A program made the translations under genes and the position numbers. Under the pieces are notes generated by a model. The model was not told the DNA's origin. It worked only from the letters and a program-made list of their open reading frames with translations, and searched no databases. From Candidatus Hodarchaeota archaeon (GTDB taxonomy: Archaea; Asgardarchaeota; Heimdallarchaeia; Hodarchaeales; Hodarchaeaceae), in contig JAHQWW010000056.1 of NCBI GenBank assembly GCA_029856365.1, positions 1 through 23,687 of the forward strand: a stretch of DNA of 23,687 bases, written 5' to 3'. Positions 2,617-12,631 of the stretch are shown piece by piece (position 1 is the first letter of the stretch; every line of letters starts with the position of its first letter).

Positions 2617-3927
2617 CTACACTGGTTTCAAATAACCCCACTTTTCTAGGGCCTTTTGAAGCTCAGAATGCGATTTGGCTTTCTCTTCAAGTGAAATTCC
2701 TTCACGCCAAGCATCAATCGCTTGGACAGTAGCTTTAGTACCTGAATAGGTGCCTTCAGGATGACCATGAATACCACCACCGACTTGTAGGATCATATCA
2801 GTGGTTCCATATACAGTTAGAACTTCTGGAAGAACTCCTGGATGCAATCCACCGGAAGCAACTGGTAAAGTAGGTTTAAGGTTCCCCCATGATTGAGCAA
2901 GTCTTCTTCCCTTATCCTCACTGATTTCTTGATTAAGCAAAAGATCTCTCATATCTAGCACATCCTCTTTCGGACTATCAAGTTTACCTACGACGGTACC
3001 AATATGGATATTATCGACTCCAATAAGTCTCATTAATTTGGCTAAGAAATACATACTTATACCGTGCGTATAGTGTTTTGTGAACGTTGCATGCATAGCA
3101 CGGTGCGCATGTATGGCCATATCTAGATCGTCTACTAAATTTCTAAGGGTTTGAACGCTTGCAAAACCAGTGGTTACTACATCAACCATGAAATATTTAA
3201 ATCCATGATCATGAATAACCTTCACACGATTCTCCATTTCATACGTTTCTGCAGTCACATTGATGAGTGCATCTTTCATTTCACCAGTTTCATTTTCAGC
3301 TTTATCTCGTGTCTTTGCCATCTGTTCAACACGTTTCTCAAAGATATTAAACGACTGAGAGGTGAGATTCTCGTCATCTTTAACCAAATCACCCCCAGCG
3401 CTCCAAAAGTCCCAGGCAATTTCACAATGCTGTTCTACAGTCAGACCAACTTTAGGTTTGGGAACACAGGCTAGTAATGGTCCTTCTTTCTTTTTGAAAA
3501 TTTTCTGAATAGCCTCAACTCCCATATAAGGGCCCTTAGATCCTTTAATGTATTCCAAAGGAAGAGTGGCATCTATCAATCGTAAATTCTTAATTGCTTT
3601 CATTCCAAAGATATTACCTGCTATCCCCGACATCAGTTGTGGTACATTATCTTGCTCCCATAAAATCAAAGGATAAGCAATCTTAACTAAATTTAGATGT
3701 TCATCATTCCAGAAGGCACGTCCTCGCATATCATATATTCGATTATCTAGTGTCTCCAAAGTAGTCCAAGTTCCAATTGAAGATTCTGATGCTAATCTTC
3801 CAATAGTATCATCAACCGAGACCTCTTCTGATTTATCAAAATAATAAAGAGCGATTAGATCATCCTTTTTTGGACTGTATTTCCGATCAATAAAATCATG
3901 ATACCACTCTATTTTCTCTTTCACCAA
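2617..3927 (-). CDS. rbcL: Form III ribulose-1,5-bisphosphate carboxylase large chain
   Basis: ASESSIGTWT, AGNIFGMK, KPKVG, GGDLVKDDENLT, HAHRAMH, HIGTVVGKL, ASGGLHPG and GGGIHGHP are all present, so it has a full catalytic set rather than a form IV pattern. N-terminus resembles Pyrococcus/Archaeoglobus form III. Start is TTG 3927 or GTG 3924, with SD-like GAGAGGT upstream. Confidence 0.96.
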   Translation of the reverse strand: MVKEKIEWYHDFIDRKYSPKKDDLIALYYFDKSEEVSVDDTIGRLASESSIGTWTTLETLDNRIYDMRGRAFWNDEHLNLVKIAYPLILWEQDNVPQLMSGIAGNIFGMKAIKNLRLIDATLPLEYIKGSKGPYMGVEAIQKIFKKKEGPLLACVPKPKVGLTVEQHCEIAWDFWSAGGDLVKDDENLTSQSFNIFEKRVEQMAKTRDKAENETGEMKDALINVTAETYEMENRVKVIHDHGFKYFMVDVVTTGFASVQTLRNLVDDLDMAIHAHRAMHATFTKHYTHGISMYFLAKLMRLIGVDNIHIGTVVGKLDSPKEDVLDMRDLLLNQEISEDKGRRLAQSWGNLKPTLPVASGGLHPGVLPEVLTVYGTTDMILQVGGGIHGHPEGTYSGTKATVQAIDAWREGISLEEKAKSHSELQKALEKWGYLKPV

Positions 3928-4036: not shown

Positions 4037-5272
4037 TTAACCAGCTTCAATGTTTGTATAAGGGATACTGGTATCATAATCAACCTCTTCCGCTCCAACC
4101 ATTCGCTTCCAACGTGCTACCATCCAATGGAAAGCCTCTTCTGTATCAGAATCCATTGAGAAATGATCCTCTGCTTGATAATTAAATAATCGAAGTGTTG
4201 ATATTTTAGATTCATATTTCGCTTCCAGTCTTCCGATAAAAATCCCACGATAAAGGAGAGGATAGACATAATAACCCCATTTCCGATCCTGAGGTTTTTT
4301 ATAGACTTCCCACATATAATCAAAATCAAACAGCTTATTCAGAAGTTGCCTATCCCAAATAAGTGGATCTAAAGGGCCAATAACTCTCATCTCATCATCA
4401 AGAGATTCTTGACTCATTTCACCCCAGTTCGAAGGAACAATGTATCCCATGGCCTCGACCTTGAGTTGAATAAGTGAAGGAGTCAATCTATCTATATTTT
4501 CTTCACTTAAAAGCCTATCAGGAGAGAGATTAATTTTCTTGCCAAATTTTATTCCCTTCTTTTTAATTGATAATCGTCCTGTAGAAATGACTGGAAAACT
4601 CTGTAACTTGAGAATTAACTTTAGATGTTGCTGTTCCTCTTCCGAATAACTCTGTTTAACTAGTGCAGACTCTTCGACATAACGTTCAATCACATCGTAT
4701 GTTTTTCGGAAATTTTCATCGCGTATAACCGCAAGTTTGCCCATAGCCCATAAAAGCTCAAGAGCTGTCCCTGAATTTCGACTTGTTTTCCATACTGCAT
4801 ATTTAGGATCAGCTTTACCTAAACTAACTAAGTCTGAACTTCTTGTAATTCCCTGTTTTTGAACATAATTCAACACTTGATCAAGCATATCAGGATGAGT
4901 TTGCTCAAGTATCCTTAATGCACGACTATAATATCTATCAAGATGGTTGCGATCAAGCGTTTGAGAGTAAAAGAGAGGAAAATGTTCTATATGAATCGCA
5001 TTTAAATTATGAAAATATGTTTCAAATACCAATTTCTCAGGATAGACAGTTCTTTCAAATTCTCCCTGATGATAATCGTGTATTCGTGAGCTGAAAAAAA
5101 GATCATGATATCTACTAGCAGGATTGATTAGATCCAATTGCACAAACCCTTGTTCTCTAATAACTTTTCTGATACCATCCTGTTCTTTGCTTTGCCAGCG
5201 ATGGAGATGACATCCTACTAATAATATTCGTTTTAATTCGTGATTGCTAATCTCAGGAATTTTTAATACCAT
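4037..5272 (-). CDS. ycaQ: YcaQ-like (HTH_42/AlkZ superfamily) interstrand-crosslink DNA glycosylase
   Basis: N-terminal VQLD (QxD motif) followed by INPASRYHDL. C-terminal PLDPLIWDR...FDYMWEVYKKPQDRKWGYYVYPLLY...IGRLE is typical of YcaQ; 411 aa. Confidence 0.85.
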   Translation of the reverse strand: MVLKIPEISNHELKRILLVGCHLHRWQSKEQDGIRKVIREQGFVQLDLINPASRYHDLFFSSRIHDYHQGEFERTVYPEKLVFETYFHNLNAIHIEHFPLFYSQTLDRNHLDRYYSRALRILEQTHPDMLDQVLNYVQKQGITRSSDLVSLGKADPKYAVWKTSRNSGTALELLWAMGKLAVIRDENFRKTYDVIERYVEESALVKQSYSEEEQQHLKLILKLQSFPVISTGRLSIKKKGIKFGKKINLSPDRLLSEENIDRLTPSLIQLKVEAMGYIVPSNWGEMSQESLDDEMRVIGPLDPLIWDRQLLNKLFDFDYMWEVYKKPQDRKWGYYVYPLLYRGIFIGRLEAKYESKISTLRLFNYQAEDHFSMDSDTEEAFHWMVARWKRMVGAEEVDYDTSIPYTNIEAG

Positions 5273-5812
5273 TTTAATTCACATATTAGAGGAGGCCACA
5301 GAATCTTAATTGTAAGACATAATTTTCTCCATAACTGAAATTCAGAAAAATAGATTATTATTAATGCATAAAGTTTTACCAATAAACTAAATTTTTTGTT
5401 TGAGACCACAGATCCAAATATCAAGTAAAGCCTTATACAGCTACTCGTCATTAGCGTAGGATAATAAGCACTAGCTGAACCATTTCACTTTCCTGATAGG
5501 TAGTTCTCCTATTCTAAACAAATTCTATAGGAATTAATACAGGTTCTAAAAAAAAGCACAATTTTAATCTAATTGATATCCATATCCAATTCAGAGAGAT
5601 TTTTAAGTAAAAATTTGTTTTATTCAAATTTGAAGACTTTTCAGCTGTGAACATTGAATATCCAACCGATTAATTTAAAGAGATTATATTATTTATGTGA
5701 AATCAATCTTGTGCAAAGAATTTGGTTTGTAACATATCTCTGAAAAATAACTAACAGATCCCAGCTCAATTTTTTTTTTACTTTTCATAGAATTAAAACA
5801 GGGAATAAGAAT

Positions 5813-8797
5813 ATGGTTGAAGAAAAATCGATTATCAGAAGCCTCCCAAAGAATGGACTCACGAATGTTGAAGTAATTGAAAGACAAAAACGCTTCGGAA
5901 TAAATAAACTTCCTGAAAAGATAGGACGGGGGCCCTTTGTTATTTTTTTATCACAATTTGAGAATCCACTCATTTATATAATCTCTATCGCAGCTATCAT
6001 CTCCCTTGTTTTAGAAGAGTTCGGGGATGCCCTAATTATAGGATTAGTAATATTCCTAAATACAGTTGTCGGATTCTTCCAAGAATATAGAGCAGAAAAA
6101 ACAATGTCTGCTTTAAGGCAATTATTGAAACCCACAGCGAAAGTAATAAGAGAAGGGAATATTGTAGAGGTAGAAACGACCGAAATTGTCCCTGATGATA
6201 TGATTCTCTTGAATCCTGGTGATAAAATTCCTGCGGATGGAGAATTGATCGAATCGATAAATCTCTCTATTAATGAGGCCATACTTACTGGAGAAAGTGA
6301 ATCCGTAATTAAGGCCATTAATGATACTGTTTACATGGGAACTACTGTAATGGCGGGTAGAGGGTTGATGAAAGTTACCTTTATTGGAATAGATACAGAA
6401 CTGGGTAAAATAGCAACTTCTCTTGCTGAGATTCAAGATGAAATTACTCCATTGCAAGTAAGACTTCAAAATTTTGGAAAAACATTGACCTATTTTGTTA
6501 TTATCATATGTATTGTCATTTTCTCAACAGGGGTCTTATTAACTTTCAATTTTGTCGATATGATTAGAATCTCAGTCATTCTAGCCATTGCAGCTATTCC
6601 AGAAGGTCTTATAATTGCGGTTACAATGATTCTTGCTATTGGAATGCACAGAATTTTACAAAGAAAAGGTTTAGTCAGAAAACTTCTAGCGGTAGAGACA
6701 CTTGGCTCGGTTACGACTATCTGTACTGACAAAACAGGAACATTAACCGAGGGGACCATGCAGGTTGTGAGAACTGATTTCAGATCAGAAAAAATGGCTA
6801 TATTTATAATGGCATTGTGTAACAACCTTGAGGATTCTCTGGAGGTTCAGCTGTGGAAACATATAGAAATCATGAAGATGGATCCCCAAGAACTCTCTAA
6901 TAAATGTAGACGTGTCGACGAAATACCATTCTCAAGTGAGAACAAATACATGATGACTACTAATATCATTAATGGTACTGAGGTCGGTTTGGTCAAAGGG
7001 GCACCAGATATCGTAATGGGATTCTGTAAACTAAATCCTGATGAAAAACAAAAGCTCATCATTCAATTTGAAGAATGGGCGAGTATGGGATTGAAATTAC
7101 TCGGATTAGCCTATAAGCAGGAGGGAATCCTTAGGAATGTTAGAGGTTATACTTGGGTCGGTCTAATTGGGATTGAAGATCCCGTGAGACCATCAGCAAA
7201 AGATGCGATTATCCTCTGCCGTCGTGCGGGAATTAAAGTTAAAATAATTACAGGAGATTACCAAAAAACTGCAATAAAAGTAGCAGCGAATCTTGGTTTG
7301 GTCGTTGGGTCCGATAGAATATTGGAAGGGTCAGAAATCGAAACAATGAATGAATCGGAACTGATGGAAGTTGTTGACGATATTGTCATATTCTGTCGAG
7401 TTACGCCACATCACAAACTAAGAATAGTGACAGCTCTTCAAAATTGTGGTGAACAAATAGCTATGATCGGAGACGGTGTGAATGATGCTCCTGCTCTCAA
7501 AAAAGCAAATATTGGTGTTTCAGTGGGAGGAGCTACCGATGTGGCTCAAGAAACCGCTAGCCTTATTCTTTTAGATAATAATTTCAAAACACTTGTTGAT
7601 TCTGTGGAAGAAGGGAGAGTCATCTTCGACAATATTAAAAAGGTTGTTGCATTTGTACTTTCTAATTCTTTTGCCGAAATTACCATAATTTTCGTAGCTT
7701 TCATTTTAGGATGGCCTGTTCCCTTAACTATAGCTCAAATCTTATGGATTCACCTAATATGTGATGGACCATCCGACATCGCGCTTGGTTTTGAACCAGG
7801 AGAGAAAGGAATCATGGATGAACCACCGAGAAGCATCAAAGAAAATATTCTAGACAATAAGGGGAAATTACTCATCATAGCTATCAGTTCTATATCTGCA
7901 ATTTTCTGTTTACTCTTATTTAGTTACTTCAATAATATTGTTGAAAACGAAAAATTAGCTAGAACGCTTGTATTCACCATTTTAGCAATTCAATCATTAA
8001 TCTACATTTTCTCATTCCGGAGTCTTAGACGATCCATCTTCAAATCAGGTAATTTTTTCTCGAATAAACCCCTAATTTTTTCCGTAGTTCTGGGCATAGG
8101 CCAAGTATTTGTTGCGCTCTACATTCCATTTTTTAATGATATATTGGACGTGGTTCCGTTAGATTTTACAAGTTGGGTTATAGTACTTAGCGTTTCTTTT
8201 TGTATGGTAGCCATTGTAGAAATTGTCAAGTTCATTGATAGTAGATTGTTTCGAGCAACACCTCTTCAAAACATATTTGCAAATATTGAGCGAGTCCAAC
8301 AAAAATTACCTAAAATACATAATTTGCATAATATTTCAATCGATATCATGGAAGATAAAACATTGATTCAATTCCATTTTTATATACCAGCTGAAACTAC
8401 CTTAGAGATTGCGCATGAAGTAGCAAAAAGCATTGAAGAGAAAATTGCTGATGAATTTCCCATTTCTCTTCGTAAAAACCTAGAGATTATTAGCCACATT
8501 GAACCAACCCAATTACAACCAGGAAGAATTCATTCCCATCCTACCCCCATAATCTCTCCAAGTTTTCAGGATATCATTCAGACGATAGTCAAAGAAATTC
8601 CTCAAATAAAAGGATGGGATCACGGAACTGTACTTCAAGACGAAGGAAATATTTCCATATCTATGACGGTTTATCTAGAAGGAACTATGAATATCATCCG
8701 AGTGCACAATATAACTGAAGAAATAGAAACTAAGCTTAGGAGAAATATTCCCTCTCTTAAACGATGTTTTATTCATTCCGAACCCTATATACCATAA
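5813..8797 (+). CDS. P2-type cation-transporting ATPase with two C-terminal CDF-type (ZT_dimer) domains
   Basis: PGDKIPADG, LTGES, AAIPEGL, DKTGTLT, KGAPD, DPVR, TGD and GDGVNDAPALK in a 10-TM layout. An extra ~180 aa C-terminal tail has two repeats ending HIEP and HSEP. Confidence 0.93.
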   Translation: MVEEKSIIRSLPKNGLTNVEVIERQKRFGINKLPEKIGRGPFVIFLSQFENPLIYIISIAAIISLVLEEFGDALIIGLVIFLNTVVGFFQEYRAEKTMSALRQLLKPTAKVIREGNIVEVETTEIVPDDMILLNPGDKIPADGELIESINLSINEAILTGESESVIKAINDTVYMGTTVMAGRGLMKVTFIGIDTELGKIATSLAEIQDEITPLQVRLQNFGKTLTYFVIIICIVIFSTGVLLTFNFVDMIRISVILAIAAIPEGLIIAVTMILAIGMHRILQRKGLVRKLLAVETLGSVTTICTDKTGTLTEGTMQVVRTDFRSEKMAIFIMALCNNLEDSLEVQLWKHIEIMKMDPQELSNKCRRVDEIPFSSENKYMMTTNIINGTEVGLVKGAPDIVMGFCKLNPDEKQKLIIQFEEWASMGLKLLGLAYKQEGILRNVRGYTWVGLIGIEDPVRPSAKDAIILCRRAGIKVKIITGDYQKTAIKVAANLGLVVGSDRILEGSEIETMNESELMEVVDDIVIFCRVTPHHKLRIVTALQNCGEQIAMIGDGVNDAPALKKANIGVSVGGATDVAQETASLILLDNNFKTLVDSVEEGRVIFDNIKKVVAFVLSNSFAEITIIFVAFILGWPVPLTIAQILWIHLICDGPSDIALGFEPGEKGIMDEPPRSIKENILDNKGKLLIIAISSISAIFCLLLFSYFNNIVENEKLARTLVFTILAIQSLIYIFSFRSLRRSIFKSGNFFSNKPLIFSVVLGIGQVFVALYIPFFNDILDVVPLDFTSWVIVLSVSFCMVAIVEIVKFIDSRLFRATPLQNIFANIERVQQKLPKIHNLHNISIDIMEDKTLIQFHFYIPAETTLEIAHEVAKSIEEKIADEFPISLRKNLEIISHIEPTQLQPGRIHSHPTPIISPSFQDIIQTIVKEIPQIKGWDHGTVLQDEGNISISMTVYLEGTMNIIRVHNITEEIETKLRRNIPSLKRCFIHSEPYIP

Positions 8798-8945: not shown

Positions 8946-9980
8946 TTATATCTCATACACGACTTTAAATAAATTGTTTTTCTCTCTGCGGACTGTTTTT
9001 AGCAAATTGATAACTAAGTTCTCTTCCTGTTTTGTGATCACAGGAAATCCATAAGCTTTATTAATGTATTTCAAAGGTTTTCCTTGAGACAGTCTTTTTT
9101 GTACAAAGAGTTCATGTTTCTCTAAACGCTCACTCATATATTGATTTGCAAATTCCACAACTTCTTCTAAGCGTTGGACTATTATTTTCTCAAAACTCTG
9201 ATCTAGTTCATACCCAATACTATTTCTTCCTGAGCTCATCGCTGCAATTGTTGTCGTTCCTGTACCAAGAAAAGGATCTAGAACAACATCACCTCTCACT
9301 GAAAACATATTAATTAACCTGTAAGCCAATTCAAAAGCGAATGCAGCGCTCCTTTCTCTAGTTTCATTATTCAGTGCCTGTGATGTCCCTTTAATATTCC
9401 AGAGGTCTGAGAACCAATTATTTCGTTCTTCCCAAAAATAAGAGCTTTCTTGTCTATTCAGCTTTTCAGAGGCCTTTTTAAACTCCCTTTTACCCCCTTT
9501 TCTGAGAATTAGAATGAATTCATGCTCTAATGTAACATATGCACCAGGAGGTAACATTCCTGACCCCATAAACTTGTTTGGAGCGTTAGTAGGTTTACGC
9601 CAGATTATTTCTGGCAAAGTACTGAATCCAAGATCAAGACAATGATTTAAAACCCGTGAATGGTTTGGATAGAGGTGAAAGTTTTTTCCAATTGTTCTAA
9701 CAGCATCACCGACATTAATACAAGCAATTCCTCCTTTAATAAGAACCCGATAGACCTCCTTCCAGACTTTATCTAGCTCTTGATGCATTAATTCAAAAGC
9801 TAACTGCCCATTTTGCGCGCTTAGTACTCTCTTAATCTCTGGATTTATTTTGGAGAACAGATCATCCCATAATTCAATGATTGGATACGGTGGACTGGTT
9901 ACTACTAAATCAACACTTTCAGGCTCAATCTTTTTCATAATATTGGAATTATTAAAGAAAATCTGGTGAATAGTGTTCAT
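8946..9980 (-). CDS. Orphan beta-class N4-cytosine DNA methyltransferase, M.MthZI/haloarchaeal Zim-like (probable CTAG specificity)
   Basis: Motif IV VTSPPY is N-terminal and motif I DPFLGTGTT is C-terminal (beta order). KFMGSGMLPP, EHEFILI, YFWEERNxWFSD and FELAYRLINM match the remembered M.MthZI sequence. No endonuclease is adjacent. Confidence 0.88.
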   Translation of the reverse strand: MNTIHQIFFNNSNIMKKIEPESVDLVVTSPPYPIIELWDDLFSKINPEIKRVLSAQNGQLAFELMHQELDKVWKEVYRVLIKGGIACINVGDAVRTIGKNFHLYPNHSRVLNHCLDLGFSTLPEIIWRKPTNAPNKFMGSGMLPPGAYVTLEHEFILILRKGGKREFKKASEKLNRQESSYFWEERNNWFSDLWNIKGTSQALNNETRERSAAFAFELAYRLINMFSVRGDVVLDPFLGTGTTTIAAMSSGRNSIGYELDQSFEKIIVQRLEEVVEFANQYMSERLEKHELFVQKRLSQGKPLKYINKAYGFPVITKQEENLVINLLKTVRREKNNLFKVVYEI

Positions 9981-10098: not shown

Positions 10099-11004
10099 TT
10101 GAGAAAATCGGAGATCTTTCTGTTAGATAATTATAAACAAATCCAAAAAAAGGCAAGAACTGCAACATTGATTGCTTTAGCTGTCAATACGTCGCTAGGC
10201 CTCTTGAAAATCATCTCAGGGTTAGTTATTTCCAGTATGTCGTTAATTGCAGATGGATTCGATTCACTGATGGATTTATTTATGGGAATATTTGCTTTTC
10301 TTGGAACAATTATTGCTCAGAAACCTGCTGATGAGGATCACTTATATGGGCATGAAAAAATTGAAATGATTTATCTTCTATTAATAATTGGAATTATTCT
10401 ACTTACAGGACTCGTTATCTTTTTTCAAGCCCTCGATCGTTTTATAAAGGGAATAGAGCTGGAATTCTCAATTTTAGGATTAGTAATTGTAATTGTATCT
10501 ATTTTAGGAAAATTAGGTATTTCTATTGTTGTCTATCGAATATCAACACAAATCGATTCAGCCAGTCTTAGAGCTACAGCATTCAATTACATGACTGACA
10601 TGTTATCTTCAGGTTTGGTTTTGATAGCTGTGATGGGAGCTTATATTAAATTTGGGATTATTGATTCCATTGCAGCAGTCATTATCTCACTATTAATTAC
10701 TTATGGAGCTCTTAAAATGCTTGGAGACGCTTTGAGTATTCTTTTAGACCGCGCACCTGATGAAAAAGAGCTTGAACTCATACTTGATTTAGCTACTTCA
10801 GTTGAGGGTGTTAAAGAAGTTCATAAAATACGAGCGAGAATGATAAGAAGCAGGGTTGTTGGTGACATGCATGTACTAGTTGATCCAGATCTTTCTGTTC
10901 GAGAAGGCCATGGGATTAGCGAAAAAGTTTTTGATATCATCCAAAGAAAGCTTGGAGCAAATATAATTATTCATTTAGAACCTTATGAACAAAAAAAGTT
11001 ATGA
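10099..11004 (+). CDS. Cation diffusion facilitator (FieF/MntE-like) transporter
   Basis: SMSLIADGFDSLMD, KPADEDHLYGHEKIE, AFNYMTD, six TM segments and a C-terminal ZT_dimer (DMHVLVD..SVREGHGISE..IHLEP). TTG start is uncertain. Confidence 0.93.
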   Translation: MRKSEIFLLDNYKQIQKKARTATLIALAVNTSLGLLKIISGLVISSMSLIADGFDSLMDLFMGIFAFLGTIIAQKPADEDHLYGHEKIEMIYLLLIIGIILLTGLVIFFQALDRFIKGIELEFSILGLVIVIVSILGKLGISIVVYRISTQIDSASLRATAFNYMTDMLSSGLVLIAVMGAYIKFGIIDSIAAVIISLLITYGALKMLGDALSILLDRAPDEKELELILDLATSVEGVKEVHKIRARMIRSRVVGDMHVLVDPDLSVREGHGISEKVFDIIQRKLGANIIIHLEPYEQKKL

Positions 11005-11398: not shown

Positions 11399-12631
11399 AT
11401 GGATTATAGAAATTTATTTATCTTCCTAGCTATCATTTTGGGGATGGCAGTTTCGATTAATTTTCCAACACAAGGATTATTCAACGATAATCAACAAACC
11501 AAAAGTTATATCAATCATGATCCCATCTTTATCGATGGTAATAAGCATTTTAGAGCTACTATTATAGCAAAAAACTGGTTTGGTGATGGAAGTGAATCAA
11601 CACCATATGTTATTGATAGATTACGTATTATAGGGCCAAGGAGTAGCAATTTAATTGAAATACGAAACACTGATCTGCATTTCAAGATAAATAATTGCAT
11701 TCTAAGCGGTGGAAATGGAGGTATTTTTCTTTCAAATGTTAAGAATGGGATTATTTCCTACAATAACATCAGTAAAAACGTCTGTGGCATTTCTCTTAAC
11801 TACTCAACAAACAATATCATTTCCTGGGATACAATCACCCATAATGTTTTGGAAGGAATATTTCTTGATAGTTCTAGAAATAGTAAGTTATCTGATAATA
11901 TTATTACAGATAATTTATGGACAGGAGTTGAACTTTGGGACTCTGGGAATAGTAACTTATCTGACAATTTAGTAACTAATAATAATGGATCAGGAATAAT
12001 ACTTGGGCGCTCTGGGGGCTGTTTTATTTCCTCTAATAATGTCTCATCCAATAAATATACTGGAATTAAACTTTTAGACTCAGAAAGCTGTATTTTGCTT
12101 GAGAATTTTATCGTACATAATAACTTAAATGGGATTTCATTTGGAAACGCCAGTAATGCAAAAATTTTCAATAATATTGTTCTTAGTAATAGATGGTTTG
12201 GTATTAGGATATATGACTCAAGGAGAAACATCTTTACTAACAATACTCTATCCAATAATCACAGATATGGAATTCTACTTGAATCATCTAGTAAAGATAA
12301 TAAGGTTATTCAGAACGATTTCATTGGAAATTATGGAGTAGATTATTCTCAAGCATTTGATGATGGAGAAACTAATGAGTTCCTTTATAATTATTGGGAT
12401 GAGTGGACCAGTCCTGATACAAATGCTGATGGAGTTGTCGATTTGTCATATCTAATTGATGGTAATGCAGGAAATCAAGATAAACATCCTCTAGTTTCAC
12501 AATATTTGATTATAAGTCGTACATCTGATAGATATGGCTTAAACACAATAATTGGATTAATTCTTTTGATAATAACTCTTTCTGTACTTACAGTACTACT
12601 TTTTAAACAAAAATCTATGCGAATATTCTGA
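11399..12631 (+). CDS. Membrane-anchored NosD/CASH parallel beta-helix repeat surface protein
   Basis: N-terminal hydrophobic signal, HDPIFIDGN...GDGS..PYVI cap, many GIxLxxSxNxxIxxNxIxxN repeats, NYWDEW...DGVVD...D..PL cap and a C-terminal TM helix followed by basic residues. Confidence 0.88.
   Translation: MDYRNLFIFLAIILGMAVSINFPTQGLFNDNQQTKSYINHDPIFIDGNKHFRATIIAKNWFGDGSESTPYVIDRLRIIGPRSSNLIEIRNTDLHFKINNCILSGGNGGIFLSNVKNGIISYNNISKNVCGISLNYSTNNIISWDTITHNVLEGIFLDSSRNSKLSDNIITDNLWTGVELWDSGNSNLSDNLVTNNNGSGIILGRSGGCFISSNNVSSNKYTGIKLLDSESCILLENFIVHNNLNGISFGNASNAKIFNNIVLSNRWFGIRIYDSRRNIFTNNTLSNNHRYGILLESSSKDNKVIQNDFIGNYGVDYSQAFDDGETNEFLYNYWDEWTSPDTNADGVVDLSYLIDGNAGNQDKHPLVSQYLIISRTSDRYGLNTIIGLILLIITLSVLTVLLFKQKSMRIF

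Follow-up and report, generated by a model that had tools for sequence, protein, structure and literature searches.

The cytoplasmic C-terminal domain (CTD) of cation diffusion facilitator (CDF) transporters such as YiiP/FieF, CzrB, CzcD and MamM belongs to the ZT_dimer family (PF16916), and whether it acts as a true metal sensor driving transport or mainly as a structural dimer contact is still debated. Terminal cytosolic domains that sense a ligand and tune the pump are established for P-type ATPases, as exemplified by the HMA or His-rich domains of P1B pumps, the calmodulin-binding tail of P2B pumps and the R-domain of P3A pumps. The gene described here appears to combine the two: it lies on a contig of a Candidatus Hodarchaeota archaeon (JAHQWW010000056.1, assembly GCA_029856365.1; the whole stretch analysed, 23,687 nt long, is hereafter the window), and its product, P0001, is a P2-like P-type ATPase followed by two ZT_dimer domains. 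Hodarchaeota are counted among the closest archaeal relatives of eukaryotes.

In YiiP, site C of the CTD is a binuclear, high-affinity metal site that engages both protomers and holds the homodimer together, and the high-affinity site-C ions of CDF CTDs are structural or regulatory, and are not transferred (PMC10617992). The tail of P0001 resembles such a CTD in its fold, in the site-C positions of its first repeat (R1), in its predicted dimer interface and in its cytoplasmic location. It differs in consisting of two diverged copies in one chain, for which intramolecular pairing is proposed, in being attached to a P-type ATPase rather than to a Cation_efflux domain, and in that its second repeat (R2) lacks the histidines of strands beta1 and beta2. 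With the P1B, P2B and P3A domains it shares the concept of a terminal cytosolic ligand-sensing domain tuning the pump, whereas its family is that of a secondary transporter, and P0001 has neither an HMA domain nor a CPx motif. On the evidence of its sequence, P0001 is predicted to be a P-type pump with a terminal metal-binding regulatory domain borrowed from a secondary transporter.

Pump body, tail and spread of the fusion

The window has a GC content of around 34%, and P0001 is the 994 aa product of a 2985 nt open reading frame (ORF) within it. It carries the three signature motifs of the P-type ATPase superfamily (HAD-IC) and scores 311.7 bits against the TIGR01494 cut-off of 62.3; DKTGT (D306, within CTDKTGTLT at residues 304-312), TGES (159-162), GDGVNDAPAL (553-562) and PEGL (263-266, within IPEGL at 262-266) are all present, and Pfam recognises Cation_ATPase_N (PF00690), E1-E2_ATPase, Hydrolase, Cation_ATPase and Cation_ATPase_C (PF00689, residues 635-808). 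We take P0001 to be a complete P2-like P-type ATPase, the P2A-like character being indicated by PEGL in M4, by PF00690 together with PF00689 and by the top solved matches, which are Listeria LMCA1 (6zhf; E 8.7e-142, residues 13-815) and then human SPCA1 (8iwp, 7yag; E 3e-136). P0001 has the domain order, the PEGL motif in M4 and the ten-helix C-terminal block of these two pumps; unlike P0001, they have no ZT_dimer tail, and P0001 has His647 and Cys650 in M6 and falls below the PMR1 and SERCA cut-offs. Indeed, it scores under all the curated P2A, P2B, P3A and P3B equivalog cut-offs in NCBIfam, including those of the characterised P2A subfamilies, with 575.4 bits against 798.3 for the PMR1-type (TIGR01522; 575 against 798 when rounded) and 473.5 against 703.4 for the SERCA-type (TIGR01116; 474 against 703). 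It does not qualify as a P1B heavy-metal ATPase, having PEGL and not CPx, no HMA domain by Pfam and 271.8 bits against the 346.25 of TIGR01525, nor as a CDF transporter (TIGR01297), since PF01545 is absent by Pfam and FieF models match the tail alone, far under cut-off. By curated cut-offs or motifs, P0001 is placed outside the characterised SERCA, PMR1, PMCA and P1B groups.

A first-pass annotation, made from the letters of the sequence, had placed tandem ZT_dimer domains on a P2-type ATPase at 8255-8797, and this fusion proved both real and conserved. Pfam finds ZT_dimer in two stretches of the whole protein (E 9e-20, 70.9 bits against a gathering threshold of 26.7) and in the tail alone (E 8e-22), whilst a six-frame scan of the source genome located the domains inside those coordinates, at 8273-8506 and 8564-8788 (43.9 and 38.4 bits, each above cut-off); the motifs quoted in the annotation, among them the HSH of the linker (H907, H909), are all present in the translation. 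R1 and R2 are only around 20% identical (hhalign E 8e-5), which indicates that the duplication is old, not recent or spurious. The linker H907-x-H909 is invariant among two-repeat fusions.

An AlphaFold2 (AF2) model of residues 812-994, with 24 homologous tails as input, contains two alpha-beta-beta-alpha-beta units with a mean predicted local distance difference test (pLDDT) of 72 and a predicted template modelling (pTM) score of 0.45, the linker (tail residues 89-102) having a pLDDT below 50. Foldseek matched each unit to the CTDs of CzcD (6vda; template modelling (TM) score 0.84, root mean square deviation (rmsd) 0.9 A), MamM (TM 0.84-0.89) and YiiP, the range over 6vda, 6qek, 3w5y and 3h90 being TM 0.84-0.89 and rmsd 0.9-1.6 A. 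The ZT_dimer fold expected of the tail is therefore borne out by the Pfam scores and by a model of moderate confidence. Matches of the whole tail to ribosomal protein eS7 and to OsmY (TM around 0.28, rmsd around 14 A) were dismissed as meaningless.

Full-length homologues of P0001 are 58-90% identical to it. A search directed at the tail retrieved full-length proteins of 974-1001 aa with an identical Pfam architecture and tails 49-88% identical, and a search with the whole protein yielded 24 two-repeat clusters and four clusters with three ZT_dimer domains (around 1065 aa). These were drawn from NCBI, JGI, ENA and Logan assemblies, on contigs of up to 632 kb, and with around 28 independent protein clusters carrying the architecture, the sequence comparisons confirm that the fusion is real and not an artefact. 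Where the clusters are named, the names are Heimdallarchaeota, Hodarchaeum, Lokiarchaeota or Promethearchaeota, all of them Asgard, and L138, a locus from the genus of the window, bears the label Candidatus Hodarchaeota. The fusion nonetheless appears to be rare as well as conserved. Among 399 Asgard genomes, frames of pump length that include the tail are confined to the genus of the window itself (seven of 22 genomes), and none of these 399 has a three-repeat fusion; just one of 117 pump loci with the M6 motif in species genomes, that of the Hodarchaeota genome L138, has a long C-terminus; and in a library of 1.84 billion cluster representatives the fusion was confirmed for only one full-length pump (P0027) and one fragment (P0124).

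The first-pass annotation knew of no described fusion of a P2-type pump with ZT_dimer, and our literature search likewise found no paper pairing a ZT_dimer or CDF domain with a P-type ATPase, nor one on tandem CDF CTDs or CDFs with multiple CTDs. The component families are known and the combination is auto-annotated in sequence databases (precomputed Pfam), but no paper describing it was found; a study of the Asgard transportome merely lists a 'putative Ca2+ ATPase, TC 3.A.3.2.21' (PMC7997004).

Table 1. Coordinates of the fusion gene, its parts and the neighbouring genes in the window
Feature	Position	Strand	Basis or remark
P0001, P2-like P-type ATPase with tandem ZT_dimer tail	5813-8797	+	ORF list, translation, Pfam
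Pump body, residues 1-813 (A, P and N domains, M1-M10)	5813-8251	+	Pfam
M6 ion-site motif QILWIHLICDG (H647, C650, D651)	7736-7768	+	LMCA1 alignment
ZT_dimer repeat R1, residues 814-899	8252-8509	+	Pfam; mean column identity 68%
Linker, residues 900-910, H907-x-H909	8510-8542	+	Alignments; disordered in model
ZT_dimer repeat R2, residues 911-993	8543-8791	+	Pfam, hhalign R1 vs R2; mean column identity 56%
Lone N6/N4 DNA methyltransferase	8946-9980	-	PF01555, E 6e-42; between pump and CDF
Ordinary CDF, Cation_efflux and one ZT_dimer	10099-11004	+	Pfam, NCBIfam CDF
RuBisCO large-subunit homologue	2617-3927	-	PF00016, E 5e-85, and N-terminal domain
AlkZ-like DNA glycosylase, adjoining RuBisCO homologue	4037-5272	-	
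NosD/beta-helix protein	11399-12631	+	

Predicted metal-ligand positions and origin of the tail

When an R1 profile was aligned to S. oneidensis YiiP, H839, H855 and H868 fell opposite H234, H250 and H263, and H895-x-E897-P was matched by motif to H285-x-D287-P. All five site-C positions of YiiP are thus filled in R1 (H839, H855, H868, H895 and E897), their role as ligands being predicted from the sequence. Three of the five are filled in R2 (H965, H988 and E990), the beta1 and beta2 histidines being replaced by D936 and T952, and R2 of the two-repeat pump tails has a near-invariant added cysteine, C985. Across pump tails, CDF cassettes and soluble forms, H839, H855, H868, E875, H895, E897, H965, E972, H988 and E990 are conserved at 90% or more.

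Modelled as separate chains, R1 and R2 gave a complex with an interaction prediction score from aligned errors (ipSAE) of 0.76, against 0.20 for the best of three controls, with at least 95% of contacts in agreement between runs and a partner pLDDT of at least 83. The mark set for such models is reached by 58 of 80 solved complexes and by two of 110 mismatched pairs; since CDF CTD dimers have already been solved, passing it shows likeness to them and is not proof of binding between R1 and R2. The predicted interface comprises the beta2-alpha2 loop, the start of alpha2 (H868, H965) and beta3 (H895 and E897; H988 and E990). The CTD dimer contacts of YiiP are G255-N260, H263 and I283-P288 (PMC8282283), and R1 interface residues 858-865, 867-868 and 893-898, with their R2 equivalents, align with this list.

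The closest counterparts of the tail are found in CDFs with three ZT_dimer domains. Over its last 175 residues, the C-terminus of one such protein of 495 aa (P0126) is 46% identical to the tail (E 2e-53), and an Asgard CDF (L013:442-2055, 537 aa) has R1, a VHSHP linker and R2 in the same order after a canonical first CTD. In P0126, the L013 ORF and L097:595-2058 alike, the last two repeats and the HxH linker correspond to the pump-tail cassette, and in the cassette tree these CDFs are the sister or donor group; unlike P0001, they have a CDF membrane domain and a canonical first CTD, and they are far commoner. Outside the pumps, the tail profile is matched in around 128 of the 399 Asgard genomes, mainly by frames of around 480 aa, and 312 clusters (50% identity) of the representative library score E 1e-10 or better against it. 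Triple-ZT_dimer CDFs (P0129 being a further example) are widespread and extend to Chloroflexota; P0144, of 653 aa, has five repeats, and soluble proteins with two or three repeats also exist (P0127, P0145).

In a tree of the cassettes, the tails of the 24 two-repeat pumps form a monophyletic group (support 0.99), sister to P0126 and P0127 (0.999), within a clade that includes the Asgard CDFs (0.79). The four three-repeat pump tails group instead with triple-CTD CDFs of the Chloroflexota type, to which they are 42-45% identical over around 250 residues (E 1e-57 to 1e-66), being only around 25% identical to the two-repeat tails. In the tree of pump bodies, however, the two fusion types are sister groups (0.92), and the fusion proteins form one clade, setting aside two tailless DPANN pumps nested inside it. 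The latter (P0081 and P0086, in L114 and L064; Candidatus Tiddalikarchaeum anstoanum and archaeon LFW-252_1) suggest loss of the tail, possibly following transfer between lineages. The simplest reading of these trees is that the pump lineage captured CDF C-terminal regions at least twice, or that one fusion was followed by tail replacement. A single fusion event with one tail was rejected in favour of two acquisitions on the cassette tree and the 25% identity; because the bodies are sisters, an old fusion may instead have had its tail replaced. That capture was repeated is the best reason to believe that selection favours the combination of pump and tail. The CDF relatives of the three-repeat tails include those of L097 and L052, which adjoin tailless pumps, and gene pairs of a pump followed by a CDF, such as that of L097, are a plausible precursor of the fusion. 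The first-pass annotation had regarded the repeats as mirroring the tail of the CDF in the window; this likeness stands at the level of the family, but the sequences are barely similar (BLASTP E 0.02), and copying of the tail from that gene was rejected.

Ion site and gene context of the pump family

The M6 motif of P0001 aligns opposite INLVND of LMCA1, with asparagine at the positions of both His647 and Cys650; the M6 of Ca2+ pumps has Asn and Thr/Asn where P0001 has His and Cys. The H-x-x-C-D core is preserved in all 118 homologues matched by motif search, with four conservative changes at other positions of the motif, and among these homologues are around 90 pumps without a tail, 806-876 aa long and with 52-67% identity to the pump body. 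A DNA pattern for WIHLICDG had exact matches in at least 119 species genomes; among the matches listed, the genomes are mostly Chloroflexota (Anaerolineae), and also candidate phyla radiation (CPR) bacteria, Bacillota, Spirochaetes, Bathyarchaeia, Thermoproteota and one DPANN archaeon. As the His/Cys site is also found in tailless pumps and in many lineages, it is a trait of the family, independent of the tail. This pump family appears to be widespread, and we could not match it to any characterised subfamily.

An ArsR/HTH_5 gene overlaps the start of the tailless pump P0122. Of the 68 loci whose upstream sequence was long enough, 15 have a related gene before the pump on the same strand, no more than 300 bp away in 13. 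In Chloroflexota, tailless WIHLICDG pumps sometimes stand directly behind an ArsR/SmtB-type (HTH_5) gene or overlap it, for example at L026:4712-5017 and in L034, L093, L098 and L107. The pairing of an ArsR/SmtB gene with a WIHLICDG pump looks like a metal-responsive operon of an uncharacterised pump family. A CDF gene is directly downstream of a tailless pump in L097 and L090 and divergent from one in L052, whilst a VIT1 gene is divergent to the fusion pump of L017. Such contexts hint at transition metals, and P0001 most likely moves a divalent transition metal, one of the Mn, Fe, Zn, Co or Cd class, out of the cytoplasm, its substrate and direction of transport both being predicted.

No conserved operon or regulator was found for the fusion gene itself, the neighbourhoods differing in the fusion loci L017-L020 and in three other species of the genus. 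A dyad, CTGTTCAC-ACTA-GTGAACAG, lies between the divergent pump and VIT1 genes of L017 (7898-7917), and a TTAGGA..TCCTAA-like dyad is common to the regions 5' of a two-repeat pump (L018:5830-5872) and a three-repeat pump (L020:5848-5871). In the window, the region upstream of the gene (5273-5812) has no dyad with arms of eight or more nucleotides. A shared upstream palindrome for fusion pumps was rejected, no comparable dyad being present in the window.

A possible metal-dependent control of the pump

The account that we favour, and hold to be slightly likelier true than false, is that P0001 exports transition metals and is gated by R1 and R2, which pair within the molecule as a pseudo-dimer clamped by metal; its metal binding, metal identity, transport direction and regulation are what we infer. 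In one Asgard lineage, labelled Hodarchaeota or Heimdallarchaeota, the pump gained the cassette of R1, HxH linker and R2, which follows M10 on the side facing the cytoplasm and derives from the C-terminal end of a triple-CTD CDF transporter. The two repeats of one polypeptide would pair so as to mimic the V-shaped homodimer of CDF CTDs, and would bind cytosolic metal at their interface. One complete YiiP-type site may be formed by H839, H855, H895 and E897 of R1 with H965 of R2, and a reduced second site by H988, E990 and possibly C985 of R2 with H868 of R1; the histidine pair of the linker may also contribute. Metal-dependent closure of this clamp would alter the bearing of the tail on M10 or on the cytosolic domains, such that pump activity tracks the cytosolic metal load, in analogy to P2B and P3A pumps, which have regulatory domains at their C-termini. 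A pseudo-dimeric sensor gating the pump was already proposed in the first-pass annotation. The pseudo-dimer has gained support from the R1:R2 complex model, the agreement of its interface with the YiiP contacts and the conservation of the ligands, whereas sensing and gating are still matters that we infer.

Several observations weigh against this account. Two of the five site-C ligands are gone from R2. The single-chain AF2 model, whose pTM is 0.45 and whose linker is disordered, does not place R1 and R2 relative to each other with confidence, and the score of the complex, for which the alignments were supplied by the analyst, may reflect memory of solved CDF CTD dimers. Purely intramolecular pairing leaves the odd domain count of the three-repeat forms unexplained. 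PEGL in M4 and closest solved relatives that are Ca2+ or Ca2+/Mn2+ pumps are compatible with a Ca2+ substrate. Finally, the neighbourhoods of the fusion genes in L017-L020 and in the same genus are unconserved and yielded no regulator. A broader proposition, to which we give somewhat less than an even chance, is that the cassette of tandem ZT_dimer domains works as a portable, self-contained switch for sensing metal, which P2-like His/Cys pumps have taken over at least twice, from two different CDF lineages, and which would confer metal-dependent allosteric control upon them in the same way as upon the CDFs, which are secondary transporters.

The tail might instead be mainly a dimerisation module, with R1 and R2 pairing in trans, in the manner of CDF CTDs, with the corresponding domains of another pump molecule to give a dimeric P-type ATPase, and with the interface metal stabilising the dimer without gating the monomer. 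ZT_dimer is, after all, the dimer contact of CDFs, and site C is what holds the YiiP homodimer together (PMC10617992); moreover, the arrangement of R1 and R2 is left loose by the monomer model, and at least one domain of the odd-numbered three-repeat fusions has no partner in cis, which favours pairing in trans for those proteins. We consider it unlikely all the same, as the complex model predicts that R1 meets R2 through the canonical interface, and as triple-CTD CDFs, although already dimeric via their own first CTD, retain the linker of around 11-15 residues and the strict two-domain form of the cassette. The asymmetric divergence of ligands between R1 and R2 is as expected of a fixed heterotypic pair, yet pairing of R1 with R2 of another chain predicts the same asymmetry, so that the alternative is weakened and keeps a modest probability. 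P1B pumps bear terminal metal-binding domains with delivery or buffering roles, and a similar role without allosteric gating, in which the tail gathers cytosolic metal and either passes it to the transmembrane entry site or simply buffers it, would fit the conserved His/Glu ligand positions, the invariant histidine pair of the linker and a tail that begins directly after M10, near the membrane. This is improbable in our view: most members of the pump family have no tail at all, the sites are predicted to lie buried between domains, a position better suited to sensing than to hand-over, and the site-C ions of CDF CTDs are not transferred (PMC10617992).

Both the pseudo-dimer and these two alternatives treat the tail as acting on its own pump. 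The first-pass annotation had also suggested that it might dock the pump on the CDF encoded in the window, through heterotypic CTD pairing, to form a two-transporter complex. The gene of that CDF is 1.3 kb further downstream and runs in the same direction, and CDF genes directly adjoin tailless family pumps in L097, L090 and L052; however, an opposite-strand methylase gene separates pump from CDF, three other species of the genus and the four fusion loci L017-L020 have neither a CDF nor a methylase gene in the vicinity of the fusion, the tail and the CTD of the CDF are barely alike (E 0.02), and R1 is predicted to find its partner in R2. Docking therefore fell away as a serious candidate and is, we believe, very improbable. 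Least credible of all is that the assembly produced a chimera or that the fusion is a functionless relic in decay. The source genome is fragmented (4.24 Mb in 204 contigs, 83.6% complete), but the same junction is found in the 28 or so clusters from NCBI, JGI, ENA and Logan, on contigs including some of 205-632 kb, and this recurrence in independent assemblies rules out an artefact at the junction, a concern raised at first pass; the frame is open, the ligand residues are invariant over tails that are 44-90% identical, and the fusion proteins group together as a single clade in the tree of pump bodies.

The neighbouring genes in the window are listed in Table 1. The CDF is probably outside the fusion feature, not being a conserved neighbour and having a CTD that matches the tail only at the E 0.02 given above. 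It has DSLMD in transmembrane helix (TM) 2 and NYMTD in TM5, hence no histidine in its transport site, and may be of the Mn/Fe type rather than the Zn type. No restriction enzyme partner of the methyltransferase was seen among the window ORFs scanned, and the methyltransferase gene is missing from the equivalent place in three related species. A NosD/beta-helix protein is also encoded near a three-repeat fusion pump (L020:10002-12650); the tblastn identity of 27-30% is weak, and the resemblance possibly a coincidence.

CDFs with three to five ZT_dimer domains were found in many genomes, and we found no description of such transporters. If the cassette is indeed a portable switch, it would be natural evidence for the CDF cytoplasmic domain as a self-contained regulator: that it moved on two or more occasions to an ATP-driven pump unrelated in mechanism, and kept its ligand residues there, argues that the domain has a function of its own, and the pump tail would offer a compact single-chain system in which to test that function. 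P2 pumps are textbook transporters of alkali and alkaline-earth ions, and a transition-metal P2 pump, if that is what P0001 is, would broaden this view with a new substrate class. The fusion also draws notice to a large and unstudied P2-like family with a His and Cys ion site, spread across Chloroflexota, CPR, Bacillota, Spirochaetes, DPANN, Bathyarchaeia and Asgard.

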